Shown piece by piece: positions 40,756 to 54,169 of a DNA stretch of 64,000 nucleotides. The DNA is from a virus: positions 1-64,000 of IMG/VR virus record IMGVR_UViG_3300012984_000012. One strand, given 5' to 3'. The number at the start of each line of letters is the position of its first letter. Positions within the stretch are counted from its first letter, which is position 1. Under the pieces are notes generated by a model. That model saw only the letters and a list, made by a program, of their open reading frames with translations, did no database searches and was not told the DNA's origin. The position numbers and the translations under genes are program-made.

Positions 40756-41052
40756 CTAATCAACGTCAAAGACAACGAACATCGGAGGACGTTGAGAAAC
40801 GACGTCTTTGACCTGGTCAGGAGACGGGCGCCAGCCTTCTTGCCACTCTTTTCTCCGAGGGTGTGCCCACTGCAAGGCACAAAGGTGACAGCAGGCAAAC
40901 TCGAGATACGCTGTCTCGTCATCACGTGAACGAAACAGTCTGTCACAGACCTGACACGACAGTGGGATAGGAGCCGAGGCTCCAACAGGAACGATGACAA
41001 AGAAGCCTTCGGGTCGTTCTTCTATCAGACGATCTCTGAGATAGGGTCGCAT
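40756..41052 (-). CDS. Small zinc-binding hypothetical protein
   Basis: CQVC...CCHLC...W...WRP; TGATG-coupled to the SbcC-like gene. Confidence 0.7.
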   Translation of the reverse strand: MRPYLRDRLIEERPEGFFVIVPVGASAPIPLSCQVCDRLFRSRDDETAYLEFACCHLCALQWAHPRRKEWQEGWRPSPDQVKDVVSQRPPMFVVFDVD

Positions 41053-43631
41053 CAGACGTACGTTACCCTTGCGTCCTTCTCGTTCTTGGTGACATCGATG
41101 ACCAGGTCTGCAGCGTCCTTGACGCCTTCGACGTGAGTGATGACGATGACCATCCTGAAATAACGCTTCAATGACGTCAACAATCGATTACATGCCTCGA
41201 CGCCTGCGTCATCCAGCGCGCCAAAGCCCTCGTCGATGATGAACATGTCGGTCTTTGGAAGCGATGACACGTTGATCAACGCCACACGAATGGCGACTGA
41301 AGCAACCATCTTTTCCATGCCAGACCCGAGTTCGATGATGCGTCGCGAGTCACCATAGTTGATGTAGATCTCTGTCGAGTCGCTGTCATCGTCCGTCTCA
41401 AGCTCGACAGTGAAGTCAACGATTCCCTGCAAGATCTTTGCGATCTCTGCGTTGATGATCGGCAATTGAGATCTCGTGATGACGCTCGGAATGCCACGAC
41501 GAGAAAACGCCGAGGTAACCAACTCATACGCCCTCATCTTCTTAAGGATCTCTTCACGTTGGTGACGCTCGCCAGCATGCTTGTCAATGATCGTTTGTAC
41601 CCTGCCTCGCTCAGTTGCTAGCAGCAGCTTCTCGGTATCGAGACGCTTAGAGGCCGCTTGAAGGGCATCGATTTCTGTCCTAAGGGAAACCACCTCAGCG
41701 TTTTCCTCATTTTTGAGGGCCTCCTCAAGTTCCTGGAGCTTGCTCTGGACGGGCTTTAGGGCGACGCTAGTGTTCTCAAAGTCAGTCTCTAACCGAACGA
41801 GCTTGACGTGCTTTGTCGAGATCTCTACCTTCAGCTTCGAGTGCATTTCGTGAAGCTGCTCTACCTTGTTTACTCGATCGCTTAGGTTCTCCTGTTTCAG
41901 GACCTGGAGTGCCTCTTCTGCACGTTGGAGCTTCTCGAGCGCCTTTGTTGACCTTTCACGCTGGGGATCAACCTTGTCCTTCACCAGGTGAGCGTCCTTG
42001 ATAAACTTGCAGCTTGGAAACTTGTCACCACACGGCACGTCATCAAGGATCTTCAGCGATCGTTCCTGCTGTTTCAGAAGCGAAGCCTCCTTTTCGTGTG
42101 AGTGTTTCAAAGCAATGACTGAGGCCTCTAGCGTTCGATACGCCTCGAGCCTACGTTTCAGATCAACCAGGTTATGCTCTTTCTGAAATTCATCGATCTT
42201 TTCGACTCGAGCGTTCAGTTTTTCAGACTCATCCTTGTTTCGCTCGATCTGTTGTGATAAGCTGTCGAGCTGCTCTGACATCGTCGTGACACGAACGCGC
42301 ATCGCTTCGACCTGAGACTTCGTCACTGGAGTGAAGTCCTTGTGTGAAGCAAGGGTACGTCGAAGTTGTTCGAGCTGGTCGTTCAGCTCGCCGAGTTTGG
42401 TCTGCTTGATCTCGATCTGTTCGTCACAATTCTCGATCTGCTGGTAACACTGTGTGTCTAGCGCCATCCAGTCCCTGTCAGGTAGGGACTTCAGCACGGC
42501 TTTTGTCGCATTCAGGTCGTTCTTTCCGAGATCGTACATCTTGTCAAAGATGTCAAGATCGAGGAACCGAGCGAGGATCTGGCGGCGGCGGGTCGAACCT
42601 TGCGATATGAATAGCTTGATCTCGTCCTGAGCTGACAACGACGTGAGCAAGAAATCATCAGGAGTGCCGATCAGCTTTCGGATCACTTTCTCAGTATCGT
42701 TACGCTGTTCACCAGCTAGGTCAATGGCCTCTCCGTCCTCCATGCGGAAAACGTTAAGAGCCGTCGACGCATTAATTTTCCCACGCTTGTCCTCGCTCTT
42801 GGTGGTCTGTCGCTCGATAACGTAGTCCGTTCCGTCAACGTTGATGACGCCTCGAGCGTAACAATACGACTTACGAGCGTTGACAACGTGAAGGTTTTTT
42901 ATCGAACCACGGTCAGTGCTGTTGTGAAGCATGTACATGATCGTGCCGACGATCGATGACTTGCCCGACCTGTTAGGTCCAAAGATCCCTACGATGCCAT
43001 TTAAGTTCTCAAAATTGATGACGTTACCTTCGCCGTAAGCGAGGGTGTTGTCAAACTTCAAGTGCCTCAACGACCACTTAGTGTTCCGAACAATCTCATC
43101 AGCACCAAAGAAGGCAAGGTAACTCTTCACCAGATCATGAACGCTGTTCCATGTCTCTTCTGTGACGTTTGCTTGGTGATGATACTCTTTCAGTAACCTA
43201 ACCAACACGTCTGGGTTCCTGAGATCATCTTTTACGACCTGTGTCGTTCCAGAAGAGATGATAATGTCACGTTTGACGTGGTGATCTGTCTTGAACGTGA
43301 CCTCAGTCGCGTTCAACGCTTCCTTGAGGCTGTGACCGATCTCGACCACGTCCCTTTGCGAGAGCTGGTCGTGGCTGTAGATCCTGAAACGACTGGATGG
43401 TGAGAAGTTCTTCTTAGCAAACTCAACGGTGCTGATGACGTCGCCTTGCCAGTCGACGGTCACGAACGGGCGGGGGTTTGGCAACTCAATGAACTTGACA
43501 TCGAAGTCATCGCGCGCCCCTAGATCCCATTGCAAGAAACCGTGAACGGTGTCCTCAGCATAATTCTGTTGGACAGTAGATCCAGGATAGCCGATCCATC
43601 CCTTTTTCCACTTGATGCGAAGCTTCGTCAC
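41052..43631 (-). CDS. sbcC: SbcC/Rad50-like ATPase fused to the C-terminal part of the SbcD/Mre11 nuclease
   Basis: YPGSTVQQNYAE (SbcD C-terminal motif), GPNRSGKS Walker A, coiled coil, CGDKFPSC hook-like motif, GSGME signature, IIDEGFGALD, ITH. Confidence 0.9.
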   Translation of the reverse strand: MTKLRIKWKKGWIGYPGSTVQQNYAEDTVHGFLQWDLGARDDFDVKFIELPNPRPFVTVDWQGDVISTVEFAKKNFSPSSRFRIYSHDQLSQRDVVEIGHSLKEALNATEVTFKTDHHVKRDIIISSGTTQVVKDDLRNPDVLVRLLKEYHHQANVTEETWNSVHDLVKSYLAFFGADEIVRNTKWSLRHLKFDNTLAYGEGNVINFENLNGIVGIFGPNRSGKSSIVGTIMYMLHNSTDRGSIKNLHVVNARKSYCYARGVINVDGTDYVIERQTTKSEDKRGKINASTALNVFRMEDGEAIDLAGEQRNDTEKVIRKLIGTPDDFLLTSLSAQDEIKLFISQGSTRRRQILARFLDLDIFDKMYDLGKNDLNATKAVLKSLPDRDWMALDTQCYQQIENCDEQIEIKQTKLGELNDQLEQLRRTLASHKDFTPVTKSQVEAMRVRVTTMSEQLDSLSQQIERNKDESEKLNARVEKIDEFQKEHNLVDLKRRLEAYRTLEASVIALKHSHEKEASLLKQQERSLKILDDVPCGDKFPSCKFIKDAHLVKDKVDPQRERSTKALEKLQRAEEALQVLKQENLSDRVNKVEQLHEMHSKLKVEISTKHVKLVRLETDFENTSVALKPVQSKLQELEEALKNEENAEVVSLRTEIDALQAASKRLDTEKLLLATERGRVQTIIDKHAGERHQREEILKKMRAYELVTSAFSRRGIPSVITRSQLPIINAEIAKILQGIVDFTVELETDDDSDSTEIYINYGDSRRIIELGSGMEKMVASVAIRVALINVSSLPKTDMFIIDEGFGALDDAGVEACNRLLTSLKRYFRMVIVITHVEGVKDAADLVIDVTKNEKDARVTYV

Positions 43632-43632
43632 G

Positions 43633-44289
43633 TTATCCGATCTCCTCTATCACCTCTGCGCCTGGGTACTTACCGATGTCGTCTTTATCGATCACGATCT
43701 CAACGTCACGGTAACCCAAGAACTGCATCCGATGAATGTCACCCAAGAAGACGAAATCATACTCCTTGAAGAAGTCAACCGTTAAGCCGTCCTCGATCAA
43801 CCAGTCGCTCTCTGTCTTGGCTCCCCACACCGGCCCATGATAGCAAGCGATGTTGATCTTTCCCGGAAGAGGCTTTACGCTCTTCCAACCAACCTCGTCA
43901 AAGAGGCTGAAAATGCACCAGGTGTAACCAGGCGCGAATTCATAGACACCGCTGTTCTTGTAGAGATGGATCTTCGGACTACGTAAGGCATTAACGATGG
44001 GCGTGATGGCGTCTTGCCTGGAGAGATTGACTAGGTTTCCATCGTGGTTTCCCAACGTCAGATGGAGCTCAGCGCATGATGACAACGTCTCAAGCCACCA
44101 AGACAGGACCTCGATGTACTCTGGGCTTAGTCCTGATGTCTTCGTGTGAAAAATGTCGCCACCGACGAACACGTGTTGAACGTTGTTTGCTTTGACCTGT
44201 TCTGCGAACGCTTCAAAGACTAACCGATACTCTTCGTGTCTTGAGAGGCCTCTCCAGTGTACGTCAGCAATGTGAGCGATCCTGAGCAT
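43633..44289 (-). CDS. sbcD: SbcD/Mre11-like metallophosphoesterase, N-terminal part
   Basis: HIADVH, GGDIFH, GNHD, YHG and GDIH motifs; ends before the YPGS motif. Confidence 0.9.
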   Translation of the reverse strand: MLRIAHIADVHWRGLSRHEEYRLVFEAFAEQVKANNVQHVFVGGDIFHTKTSGLSPEYIEVLSWWLETLSSCAELHLTLGNHDGNLVNLSRQDAITPIVNALRSPKIHLYKNSGVYEFAPGYTWCIFSLFDEVGWKSVKPLPGKINIACYHGPVWGAKTESDWLIEDGLTVDFFKEYDFVFLGDIHRMQFLGYRDVEIVIDKDDIGKYPGAEVIEEIG

Positions 44290-47048: not shown

Positions 47049-47465
47049 CTATTTCAGCAGACCAAGTAGCTTCAATTCGACCTCTGTGATCACTTCTAGG
47101 GCCACGCCGTGGGTCGAGCACCATTCCTGGGCGGCCTTGAGCTTCTTGACAACCTTCACCTGGCTCGCGCGCCTCTTGGGTTTGATCTCGACGAGAACCT
47201 TTCTGTCCGAGTATTCAACGAGGAAGTCTGGGAAGTAGTTACGTAGCTTCCCGGTCCGGAGGTTGCTGACGTACGGGATCTTGGTCTTTTCGTAAGAGTA
47301 CGTGACGACATCTACGTTCGCGTCCAACCATTGCATGTACGAGAGCTCCCACCCTGACCTGTACTTGCACTCACCCGCTTTTGGAGAGAGGTGCAGGCCC
47401 GTGTGATAGTGACGCTTACGCTTGCGACGTGTCTTACGTTTAGCCAAGCAGCTCGCCTTCAGCAA
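47049..47465 (-). CDS. Head-completion nuclease (T4 gp4 / TnsA-N-like)
   Basis: YRSGWE...WLD...YSYE...IPY...YFPDF...VEIKP...ITE. The start may be TTG at 47447. Confidence 0.8.
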   Translation of the reverse strand: MLKASCLAKRKTRRKRKRHYHTGLHLSPKAGECKYRSGWELSYMQWLDANVDVVTYSYEKTKIPYVSNLRTGKLRNYFPDFLVEYSDRKVLVEIKPKRRASQVKVVKKLKAAQEWCSTHGVALEVITEVELKLLGLLK

Positions 47466-51007: not shown

Positions 51008-51955
51008 TCACACCAACTCATCTTCCGTGACAGTCAAGAAAGTAACGTGGTTCGTCTGACACCAGGCGACCGCAGCAGCCTGTTTAGCAACGTTGAGAGC
51101 TGTCTCGGTCAGCAATTTCGGCTTGACCTCGACGAGAAAGACACCTGACAGGCGGGTGACCAAGAAATCAGGCACGTAGTTGCGAACAGATCCTTCGAAC
51201 ACGTATGGGATGCGAAACGGCTCGTGTTCCCAAGACACGACATCCTCGCCCTCGTCTAACATCCGAGCGTAAGCGCTCTCGAACGATGACCTGAGATAGC
51301 ACGTGATGCCGCCATTCTTAACGCCAACGTAGTGCTCGCCTTTGAAACCAGTCGAAGGAGGTGACCACGAACCGCTCACCATCTTGTCAGCGACGATGAT
51401 CGAGATCTTTTCACCGAGGGCACGCAAACGAGAATCTGTTTTAGCAGTCAGTCCTCGTGACCAAGAAGGTCTGCCCAACATAGATCCTGGTTTGCCAAAC
51501 ATACCGTTGTTTTCACCGCTATTCGAACACTCATATCCACAAAATCGTTGATCTCGCTTGACAAACGAGACCGTGAACTCCTGCTTGCACCACTCACACG
51601 TCTTGGTGACATCAGGCTGTCTCGTCTGTCGCGTTGACAGGAAGCAGTCATACGAGCAGTACTTGGCGTCGTCCTTGTACGACTGCACCGCCTCATAGTC
51701 CTTGCCGCAGGCGAGACACTGCTTGGTGACACGTGTCGTCAGCGTCTTAGAGATCGCTGTCTTGGCACATTCCATCCCACAGGTCTTCTGGCCCCTGAAA
51801 CGATAGGCGACGGTGAACGTCTTGCTGCACGTTTCACACGTCAGGGTAACAGGATCGAAGCGTTTCGCGAAGCAATCGTGTGAACAGTACTTCTTGTCCT
51901 TCTTGTGTGACTTGAAGCTGATCCCACATTTTTGACAAGTGTAGTCATGCACCAT
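51008..51955 (-). CDS. Free-standing homing-type endonuclease (four CxxC...C zinc repeats + TnsA-like PD-(D/E)XK)
   Basis: Repeats of CxxC.K.F...(Y/F)CSxxC, GENNGMFGK, RSSFE...HEP...YVPDF...EVKP; start moved to ATG 51955. Confidence 0.8.
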   Translation of the reverse strand: MVHDYTCQKCGISFKSHKKDKKYCSHDCFAKRFDPVTLTCETCSKTFTVAYRFRGQKTCGMECAKTAISKTLTTRVTKQCLACGKDYEAVQSYKDDAKYCSYDCFLSTRQTRQPDVTKTCEWCKQEFTVSFVKRDQRFCGYECSNSGENNGMFGKPGSMLGRPSWSRGLTAKTDSRLRALGEKISIIVADKMVSGSWSPPSTGFKGEHYVGVKNGGITCYLRSSFESAYARMLDEGEDVVSWEHEPFRIPYVFEGSVRNYVPDFLVTRLSGVFLVEVKPKLLTETALNVAKQAAAVAWCQTNHVTFLTVTEDELV

Positions 51956-52005
51956 CAAGTAATGATACAACGCTTTGTTAAGATGTTTACCAGTAGAAAA
52001 TCGTC

Positions 52006-53239: not shown

Positions 53240-54133
53240 CTACCCTCCGAGTTTGACAACGATTCCGGAGTAATCATTACTCTTGTGGCTCGCCAGGAAC
53301 TCTTTATCAGTGATTCTAACTAACTTCTTACCTTGAGAAAGGAACCATTCGTCTTTTCTGCGATCAATATCGTACGAACTTTTTCCATTGGGATGCAACT
53401 GATCGTAAGGTTTGTCTAGACCGTGCCAAAACTCACCATCAAGTTCAACGTATACGTCAAGTGTTTTGACATAAGCGTCAATCAACCAAGGCTTTTTTCC
53501 GCCATGATCGATTTTTACTTGTTGATCAATGTTGTCATGACCGTAACGCAATCGTAACCACTCAAGCAACAGCATCTCTGGTTTTGAAATGATCCAAGAA
53601 CCAACTCGGCTTGCTGTCGTTCTGTATCCCTTTTGACCTGCTTCACTTAAATTCGTTCGATTCTCAGGCAACGCCAGAGGATCCTTACCGAAACGCTTTA
53701 TCACTGTCGCCTTTCTCTTTGCCTTCGGTCCGCGTGCTTTCAGCGGATGTTCTGCACCGTGACGCTCTATCATCGTTCGCTTGAACCTAGCATTCGATAA
53801 TGACGTTGGCATCGATGGAGAGCTGGCCCCTGTGGTAACCAACCTAGAAGCAATCATCTTCTCGCTTGCGCCGGCGACCTGCGATGAGAACTCGACGCCG
53901 TAACGAGCGAGCTTTGTTTGCTTCCACTGCTGTGCCAGTTTTCCGTTCGATCGACTCTTCTTGTTGCACGCTTTCGAACAAAACGTGAGCGCTCCGTTAG
54001 TTGAGTGAGCGAGCTTGTGACCATGCACGAACTCTTTTCCGCACTCATCACAGTTGAACACGTCACGACGGCGAACCTGTTGGGTGTTCCAACGCTTATG
54101 AAGATATGTCTCATCAATCGTCTTAACGAACAT
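53240..54133 (-). CDS. Free-standing homing-type endonuclease (zinc finger + Vsr/DUF559-like domain)
   Basis: CDEC...FCSKAC, repeated T...RYG/RHG/RFG units, SKPE...IDAY...ELDGEFWH...D.RKD...LVRI; start moved to ATG 54133. Confidence 0.8.
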   Translation of the reverse strand: MFVKTIDETYLHKRWNTQQVRRRDVFNCDECGKEFVHGHKLAHSTNGALTFCSKACNKKSRSNGKLAQQWKQTKLARYGVEFSSQVAGASEKMIASRLVTTGASSPSMPTSLSNARFKRTMIERHGAEHPLKARGPKAKRKATVIKRFGKDPLALPENRTNLSEAGQKGYRTTASRVGSWIISKPEMLLLEWLRLRYGHDNIDQQVKIDHGGKKPWLIDAYVKTLDVYVELDGEFWHGLDKPYDQLHPNGKSSYDIDRRKDEWFLSQGKKLVRITDKEFLASHKSNDYSGIVVKLGG

Positions 54134-54169
54134 CAAACAGAAGGTAACACTTCTTTGATGCATCGTAAA

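Follow-up and report, generated by a model that had tools for sequence, protein, structure and literature searches.

The minus strand of a viral DNA stretch from IMG/VR (record IMGVR_UViG_3300012984_000012, positions 1 to 64,000; this whole stretch of 64,000 nucleotides is called the window below) carries two adjacent open reading frames (ORFs) that together read as an SbcD nuclease joined to its partner SbcC, with a break inside the nuclease domain. Why is the domain interrupted at this point, where do the extra residues on both sides of the break come from, and how could the two pieces still make up an enzyme? The original prediction, made from the letters alone, had described an SbcD split within an inserted mini-module, its C-terminal half fused to SbcC, and had offered two outcomes: reassembly of the halves by strand complementation, or a programmed +1 frameshift or hop yielding the full fusion. 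We found that the split is conserved, that relatives carry endonuclease genes or their remnants at the same site and that the short tails at the break have moved horizontally. In our judgement it is quite probable that a single-chain SbcD–SbcC gene was split by a homing-endonuclease cassette whose endonuclease was later lost, and that the two halves are translated separately and reassemble.

The upstream frame, ORF1, ends in ...GDIHRMQFLGYRDVEIVIDKDDIGKYPGAEVIEEIG* and the downstream frame, ORF2, begins with MTKLRIKWKKGWIGYPGSTVQQN...; ORF2 completes the SbcD part with ∼190 residues that include the YPGS strand. The features of the locus are as follows:

43633–44289 including the stop (coding part 43636–44289), minus strand: ORF1, 218 amino acids (aa); the N-terminal piece of the SbcD/Mre11 nuclease domain, up to GDIH, the next strand and the N-tail.
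43633–43635, minus strand: TAA stop of ORF1, unchanged in an independent contig.
43632, minus strand: spacer between ORF1 and ORF2, a single base.
41052–43631, minus strand: ORF2, 859 aa, with a GTG start.
43629–43631, minus strand: GTG start of ORF2, one base past the TAA of ORF1 and the first start codon beyond the in-frame stop.
43642–43647, minus strand: GAGGAG, a Shine–Dalgarno-like word inside the last codons of ORF1, 10 nt ahead of the ORF2 start codon.
43636–43704, minus strand: N-tail of the module, V196–G218, acidic, not present in uninterrupted relatives; aligned to the fused homolog with the module, it is predicted to form the outer portion of a long strand, then a loop and a short strand.
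43608–43631, minus strand: C-head of the module, M1–W8, basic, the outer part of the returning long strand.
43062–43607, minus strand: remaining SbcD part in ORF2, the YPGS..QQNY core strand and ∼170 residues ahead of the ATPase.
41052–43061, minus strand: putative ABC ATPase of the SbcC/Rad50 kind with a coiled coil, joined to the rest of SbcD and assigned by sub-threshold Pfam matches and homologs.

In the window 32 residues follow GDIH in ORF1 and 13 precede YPGS in ORF2, ∼31 residues more than in fused relatives. The junction is covered by a 742-nt contig from a different soil study (run X4), which spans 43214–43955 with four substitutions and no indel; none of the substitutions falls at 43629–43638. 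Because this independent contig contains neither an indel nor a change at the junction, and thus agrees with the window at position 43632, an assembly error is excluded. Exact-match contigs of runs X1 and X2, which may be the source of the window DNA, were left out as support. The record that the window belongs to is a viral fragment of 129,880 bp, estimated to be 38% complete, and one copy of the gene was found in it. A blastn search of GenBank phages with the 3.2-kb locus gave no match; protein-level searches did find relatives.

ORF1 matches the Pfam family Metallophos (PF00149) with 45.6 bits at a cut-off of 21.5. Metallophosphoesterases bind metal through the motifs DxH, GD, GNH, H and GxxH; the residues D9, H11, D45, H48, N81, H82, H151, D184 and H186 are invariant among 30 split homologs. 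In a profile search of the PDB, the profile of the split N-halves matched SbcD (4lty) at E 5.5e-6, along with Mre11 chains. An AlphaFold2 (AF2) model of P0004, a homolog with an uninterrupted chain (not the window chains), matched 3tho_B, 7yzo_B, 7dog_A and 4lty_A over nuclease and capping domains (Foldseek, E 4e-14 to 8e-13), as well as Mre11–Rad50 and SbcCD head structures (E ∼1e-13 to 1e-14). The Pfam matches of ORF2 are all sub-threshold: SMC_N 35.4 bits (cut-off 40), AAA_23 21.6 (27), beginning at residue 191, and SbcC_Walker_B 18.9 (27). AAA_23 reaches 55.7 bits in the fused homolog of Microcystis phage Mel-JY01, and tblastn found ORF2 homologous along its entire length to phage genes annotated as exonuclease or SbcC-type. 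We also noticed a nearly invariant motif, VPCGD.FP.CKFIKD, in the coiled-coil middle of ORF2 (columns 918–935 of alignment A4). The zinc hook of Rad50 is a CxxC motif, and the ORF2 motif may be a variant of it in which the Cys pair lies eight residues apart instead.

The family is normally a single chain. A full HMMER scan with ORF1 returned 2562 representatives at E ≤0.001, and the figures given here for representatives come from the best 150 of these. A length of at least 900 aa was found in 119 of the 150; GDIH and a YPGS-type motif were both detected by motif search in 130. The close spacing of the two motifs, which the original prediction had stated for Mre11/SbcD, holds for this group: the distance is 10–26 residues in 127 of the 130, and 45–46 residues in three (P0002, P0004 and P0051), which carry the module in an uninterrupted protein. 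Split N-halves with tails make up 6 of the 150. The usual relative is one fused protein of ∼1050 aa; Mel-JY01 has an annotated fused protein of 1066 aa, and in the uncultured phage LR756501 a single open frame of 1202 aa covers both parts. A fused single-chain SbcD–SbcC is the usual form in this large-phage group. Since the relatives are single chains, the fusion of the C-terminal half to SbcC, correctly noted at the outset, is the normal state of the family; what is odd is the break inside the nuclease domain together with the ∼31 extra residues, both of which had also been recognized as a split and an inserted mini-module.

From 133 relatives in IMG/VR we kept 80 loci, to which the locus counts refer. 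In 38 of them the same loop is split and the tails are homologous, 41 have no interruption and the state of one is unclear; the split is thus shared by homologs at the same place. Whole genes lie between the halves in some of these relatives. Locus L008, which belongs to the window's own clade, has 948 nt between the halves with an ORF of 306 aa matching ROS/MucR (31.7 bits) and a TnsA-like nuclease (24.6 bits, slightly below the cut-off of 26.5). In L002 (LR756508, a distant, uncultured GenBank phage of 484 kb whose N-half is 32% identical to ORF1) an ORF of 305 aa with Cys-rich repeats and a TnsA-like N domain (27.2 bits) is inserted at the same site; the inserted ORFs of L002 and L008 are 39% identical over 187 aa (E 3e-38). 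L034 and L035 carry an inserted ORF of 300 aa with Cys-rich repeats and, by weak Pfam matches, a Vsr/DUF559-like C-terminus. Shorter inserts follow: L032 and L033 contain an ORF of 44 aa that corresponds to the first ∼10 and the last ∼30 residues of the L034 endonuclease joined together, L031 retains 76 nt between the halves, and L036/L037, L043 and L047/L048 retain 12–24 nt. Taken together, these sequences form a decay series of a free-standing homing-endonuclease gene, and the window with its single nucleotide stands at the end of such a series. We class the window as a derivative with the endonuclease lost because endonuclease ORFs stand at this site in L008, L034/L035 and L002, and remnants in L032/L033 and L031.

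The endonucleases of this one target site (L002:1748–2665, L034:2979–3881 and L008:5686–6606) differ in how their parts are combined. Cys-rich finger repeats are common to the TnsA-like L002 and the Vsr-like L034 proteins (BLAST E 0.001), and the TnsA-like L008 protein has a ROS/MucR finger instead, which suggests that DNA-binding and nuclease domains have been shuffled among them. In the window's clade, the 307-nt gap between the halves of L024 holds an ORF of 104 aa (L024:5651–5965) without a family match, which could be a remnant of another insert type. A group I intron was ruled out for the window, where the ORFs are only 1 nt apart. Tails of the same pattern were also found on split N-halves in distant subfamilies (P0014, P0098, P0116, P0135 and P0138). 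Of 64 IMG/VR loci in the P0135 subfamily, 62 are fused and lack the module and two gave no parse, a count in which a second frame match was also accepted for L100 (at a contig end) and L120. L120 has a stop 241 residues past GDIH, not at the module site, which may be another break or a frameshift.

Does the tail DNA belong to the host gene or to the insert? Among the Vsr-type split alleles the DNA of the tails is much more similar than the host gene. We compared two of these loci, L031 and L034: their tails are 91% (N-tail) and 100% (C-head) identical, and their flanks are 73% identical over the upstream 540 nt (N-domain) and 65% over the downstream 1500 nt (C-part). The split L031 and the fused L039 share 85–93% identity along the gene and differ by an insert of ∼151 nt; in the ∼90 nt on either side of it identity goes down to 58–75%, a dip that co-conversion would produce. 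A gene tree was calculated from 979 columns with the module excluded, for 73 rows (33 split, 40 fused); the other 7 of the 80 were dropped as having fewer than 400 C-part residues on the contig or failing the motif search. On this tree the window's clade is one group of 23 split rows (97*) that includes L008 with its endonuclease, and in the sister clade 9 split rows are dispersed among 35 fused ones. Eight changes of the split state are needed, at least six of them forced by starred branches. When the 9 Vsr-type split rows, a group chosen after the tree was seen, were forced into one clade, an approximately unbiased test rejected the arrangement (p 1.45e-5). A FastTree of 220 N-domains gave 17–20 changes, a rough figure in which the truncated fragments P0072 and P0128 were counted as split; we rely on the 979-column tree. 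These comparisons show that the tail DNA has moved horizontally, and they are evidence that it belongs to the mobile unit and travels with the endonuclease gene between hosts.

In order to see how the module sits in the protein we used the AF2 model of P0004, calculated from alignment A4, which contains fused proteins only; alignment A3, which also includes half-fragments, misaligned the module and was not used for folding. The model has a mean predicted local distance difference test (pLDDT) score of 88, with 87–97 over residues 181–240. In the module region a long strand (189–201) is followed by a short helical turn, a short strand (212–217), a two-residue turn and a long strand (220–232) that runs into YPGS. 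The natural break maps to the turn at 218–219, between the short strand and the returning long strand. As modelled, the module is an outward extension of the host β-hairpin plus one extra strand. With the strand order deduced from this model, the ORF1 tail would provide two acidic strands (VEIVID, AEVIEEI) and the ORF2 head one basic strand (KLRIKWKK). Complex prediction for ORF1 with residues 2–187 of ORF2 gave a score of 0.91, compared with 0.01 for the best of three controls; 58 of 80 solved complexes attained the mark applied, as did 2 of 110 mismatched pairs, counts that are a rough guide only, our own alignments being used. The runs agreed in at least 97% of contacts, with a partner pLDDT of at least 73, and the predicted interface comprises residues 178–203 and 210–218 of chain 1 and 1–19 of chain 2, so that both tails lie within it. 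The acidic and basic end-peptides probably hold the two halves together non-covalently, and the strand-complementation clasp put forward in the original prediction is consistent with both models.

The tails have also been maintained. Synonymous differences have reached saturation among 21 rows from the clade of the window (proportion of synonymous differences, pS, 0.78–0.82), and the corresponding non-synonymous proportion (pN) is 0.28 in the N-tail, 0.33 in the C-head, 0.22 in the catalytic core and 0.51 in the next 150 codons. Judged by these proportions, the tails are under constraint (purifying selection), and we infer that function is retained in the split enzyme. A separate observation concerns the KYPGAEV stretch of the N-tail (43636–43680, minus strand), which resembles the YPGSTV core motif of the C-half (43590–43600, minus strand), to the extent that MAFFT overlaid them. 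It agrees with the YPGS strand at 4 of 13 positions, and the motif is missing from the distant tails of L002, P0116 and P0135; the likeness could be due to chance or to an old partial duplication at the insertion site.

A split intein was tried as an explanation of the extra residues and rejected. Intein splice junctions carry Cys, Ser or Thr, and the boundary residues here are V196 and K9; the tails total only ∼31 residues (23 + 8), and Pfam gave no match to a Hint domain. The reported absence of an intein is upheld, no intein family appearing in Pfam at E up to 0.01.

How, then, are the two halves made? We compared 40 split alleles (the window, L002 and the 38 loci, several rows being identical copies that came from different samples). 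The distance from the upstream stop to the downstream start ranges from −14 to +948 nt: 18 rows have −4 nt (an NTGA overlap), two have 0, three +1, one −1, two −11 and one −14, and among the longer ones eight have +12 to +137 and five 307 to 948. The downstream frame relative to the upstream one is 0, +1 and +2 in 10, 8 and 22 of the 40 rows, respectively, and the last sense codon before the stop varies (G, D, T, E, A, K and others). The homologous heads in split relatives begin at the same place as ORF2, with ATG, GTG or TTG, and in many of them GAGG-type words precede the start of the downstream half. The start codon of the C-half in L008, a GTG, shares bases with the endonuclease stop in a G-TG-A arrangement, just as it does with the stop of the N-half in 18 endonuclease-free rows; this would fit an in-frame deletion of the endonuclease body. 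From this pattern we infer two separate polypeptides, with ORF2 started by termination–reinitiation coupling.

The rival for this step, a programmed +1 frameshift at GGA-TAA-C, a stop read-through or a ribosomal hop that yields full-length SbcD–SbcC, has some signals on its side at the window junction: ORF2 lies in the +1 frame, GAGGAG stands 3 nt ahead of GGA-TAA, the same spacing as in prfB, GGA followed by a stop resembles the take-off site of T4 gene 60, and a GGA codon occurs 34 nt downstream in the frame of ORF2. Distance and frame relation vary among the 40 alleles, the last sense codon is unconserved, and a whole endonuclease gene separates the halves in L008, L034, L035 and L002. At the window itself, re-pairing from GGA to GAU would be poor, the junction RNA showed no structure beyond that of shuffled sequences (z +0.97), and a hop from GGA to GGA would remove the conserved strand of the head. 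We therefore abandon the frameshift or hop that the original prediction had left as its second option, and regard recoding of any of these kinds as highly improbable. An error of sequencing or assembly, or a nonsense mutation private to this record, which had been named as what could undo the whole observation, has a negligible probability: the run X4 contig from another study leaves the junction unchanged without an indel, and 38 of the 80 related contigs are split at the same site. Nor does the locus look like a broken and decaying gene whose nuclease was inactivated by the split. The split does fall inside the catalytic domain, and with 38% of the genome in hand another copy could lie elsewhere; yet halves and tails are conserved under saturated synonymous change in 21 distinct rows of the 23-row all-split clade, the metal-binding residues do not vary, ORF1 and ORF2 stay open for 218 and 859 aa, and the gene is present in a single copy in the 129,880-bp record. 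We consider decay very improbable, if somewhat less so than recoding.

A more serious contender concerns the order of events. The module could predate the endonuclease, as a loop insertion of ∼30 residues in a fused lineage in whose second turn the endonuclease landed later, the module then spreading as co-converted donor flank. This would explain the three fused proteins with an unbroken module and the confident, continuous extension of the host hairpin seen in the model of P0004, and the identity that also dips ∼90 nt beyond the module is what co-conversion would leave. Yet P0002 sits within the window's otherwise all-split clade (N-domain FastTree, support 88), which fits a re-fusion after loss of the endonuclease, and the fused module occurs in only 3 of the 130 representatives with both motifs, compared with tailed split N-halves in 6 of the 150; no relatives of P0002 were found in viral contigs. 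On balance we hold this order of events to be unlikely, while giving it clearly more weight than decay or recoding. Several points weigh against the invasion of a single-chain gene by an endonuclease cassette and the reassembly of its halves. Since uninterrupted proteins with the module exist (P0002, P0004 and P0051), the module might have started as an ordinary loop insertion. The junction of the window, with its 1 nt, bears no trace of an endonuclease, so that its former presence is deduced from relatives such as L008 of the same clade; the Vsr-type label of the L034 ORF depends on sub-threshold Pfam matches; the 10-nt spacing from GAGGAG to GTG is rather long; and the high score of the predicted complex shows likeness, not binding, and was to be expected for two pieces of a single fold that has solved relatives.

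Invasion by a cassette, which we still prefer, would have proceeded as follows. The ancestor would be a single-chain SbcD–SbcC gene of the Mre11–Rad50 kind, and a free-standing homing-endonuclease gene would have entered the β-hairpin loop between GDIH and the YPGS strand. The mobile unit would have consisted of ∼23 codons and a stop that ended the upstream half, the endonuclease gene in the middle, and a ribosome-binding region, a start codon and ∼8 codons that headed the downstream half. Later, deletion of the endonuclease gene in the lineage of the window would have left as a scar two ORFs one base apart. Translation of ORF2 would be coupled to termination of ORF1, and, going by the models, the basic N-terminal strand of ORF2 would pair with the acidic strands at the end of ORF1 while the rest of the domain interface closes round them. 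The module would thus be the footprint of a homing-endonuclease cassette, an origin that the original prediction had not considered, and the split would be no mutation private to this record and no invention of its lineage.

A bolder extension is that the tails are a portable strand-insertion clasp owned by the mobile element and carried by endonucleases with two unrelated nuclease domains, TnsA-like and Vsr-like, some of which have Cys-rich repeats in common. Such a clasp would allow an essential single-domain fold to be invaded without killing it, would outlive the endonuclease as a lasting split and could re-fuse as an insertion of 30 residues of the P0002 type. We put this forward tentatively and would not bet on it. 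If it is true, endonuclease traffic would be a recurrent source of natural split-protein tags and of protein insertions. Apart from that, the short pair of acidic and basic strands may be useful as a small natural split-protein tag. The loci also provide a well-populated natural series for one gene, from the intact form by way of two kinds of invading endonuclease, an endonuclease in decay and its loss with the split left behind, to possible re-fusion. On such a series the life cycle of free-standing homing endonucleases can be tested directly, as can the proposal that tails counteract fragmentation, with an enzyme of the Mre11/Rad50 type. For annotation, a 218-aa ‘metallophosphoesterase’ and the ‘AAA domain’ gene that follows it in large phages should be read as one SbcD–SbcC unit.

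Possible relatives of the endonucleases at the sbcD site occur elsewhere in the window. An ORF of 320 aa at 51008–51970 (minus strand) combines four Cys-rich CxxC...C...C repeats with a TnsA-like nuclease domain (PF08722, 51.4 bits), and aligns end-to-end with the sbcD-site endonuclease of L002 (26% over 318 aa, E 4e-21). It has the appearance of a free-standing homing endonuclease of the L002-type family that is still intact, situated between structural genes 7.4 kb from the split. A second ORF of 307 aa at 53240–54163 (minus strand) matches DUF7487 (34.9 bits), has a C-terminal motif of the ELDGEFWHG type and shows distant similarity to the L034 endonuclease, which is Vsr-like (21% over 235 aa, E 2e-5). 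As these two ORFs are related to them, both endonuclease types of the sbcD site occur elsewhere in this phage. A third ORF of 138 aa at 47049–47465 (minus strand), which adjoins a RuvC-like gene, contains the TnsA-like nuclease domain alone (57.4 bits) without a DNA-binding part; over 103 aa it shares 36% identity with the nuclease portion of the endonuclease in L008, and it could be either a minimal endonuclease or one in decay.

Gene splitting of this kind has been published before, including one SbcD-like case (Dassa et al. 2009, PMC2677866; Crona et al. 2010, PMC3045599). The former describes a locus from the Lake Gatun metagenome in which two ORFs encode an SbcD-like exonuclease and enclose a Vsr-like endonuclease ORF, and no intein is present; 25 residues are added at the C-terminus of the upstream ORF and nine at the N-terminus of the downstream one, between consecutive conserved motifs, and the endonuclease ORF overlaps the downstream ORF. 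Going by this description, our loci L034 and L035 look like the same arrangement. The window differs in being without an endonuclease gene, and the single one remaining in its clade (L008) combines a TnsA-like nuclease with a ROS/MucR finger and is not Vsr-like. The split gene here is moreover a fused SbcD–SbcC, and in place of one locus the comparison covers 38 split and 41 unsplit relatives as well as remnants, with evidence of tail movement. Split inteins in fractured phage genes, described in the same paper, are a further comparison: the layout of half, endonuclease and half and the charge-complementary strands at the break are alike, but the halves of the split SbcD would, unlike those of split inteins, stay unligated.

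In Aeromonas phage Aeh1, according to Crona et al. (2010), the ribonucleotide reductase NrdA is split into NrdA-a and NrdA-b by mobE; the tails are essential and act on the dimerisation of heterodimers, and such tails of opposite charge, born with the insertion, were proposed as a general antidote to fragmentation. On our reading of the window, the two cases have in common that insertion of a free-standing endonuclease divided an essential phage enzyme, that oppositely charged tails arose with it and that the halves are translated independently. They differ in the host protein, in the endonuclease, which is of the HNH type in Aeh1, and in the order of charges, the upstream tail being basic and the downstream one acidic there, the reverse of the window. 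The Aeh1 tails were shown to be essential, whereas those of the window are predicted to extend a β-hairpin within one domain. The topoisomerase genes 39/60 of T4 with mobA and a 50-nt bypass, named in the same paper, are similar in that an endonuclease cassette splits a replication or repair gene and adds extra sequence, and different in that the split alleles studied here have no conserved pair of take-off and landing sites and the junction of the window shows no stem-loop.

E. coli SbcCD, Mre11–Rad50 and T4 gp47/gp46 likewise combine the nuclease fold with an ATPase partner, and the homolog model matches 3tho_B, 7yzo and 4lty; in those systems there are two complete proteins, whereas here the natural form is a single chain and the break lies inside the nuclease domain, not at the border of nuclease and ATPase. 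In the profile alignment the GHIH of E. coli SbcD is replaced by GDIH. Within the full-text literature, subscription journals being outside the scope of the search, we found no paper on a split phage sbcD besides that of Dassa et al. (2009) or on a natural single-chain SbcD–SbcC. Relative to that literature, what we add is the population view, with 38 split and 41 intact loci, remnants and possible re-fusions, together with a second, TnsA-like type of endonuclease at the site, tails that travel with the cassette and a single-chain host.

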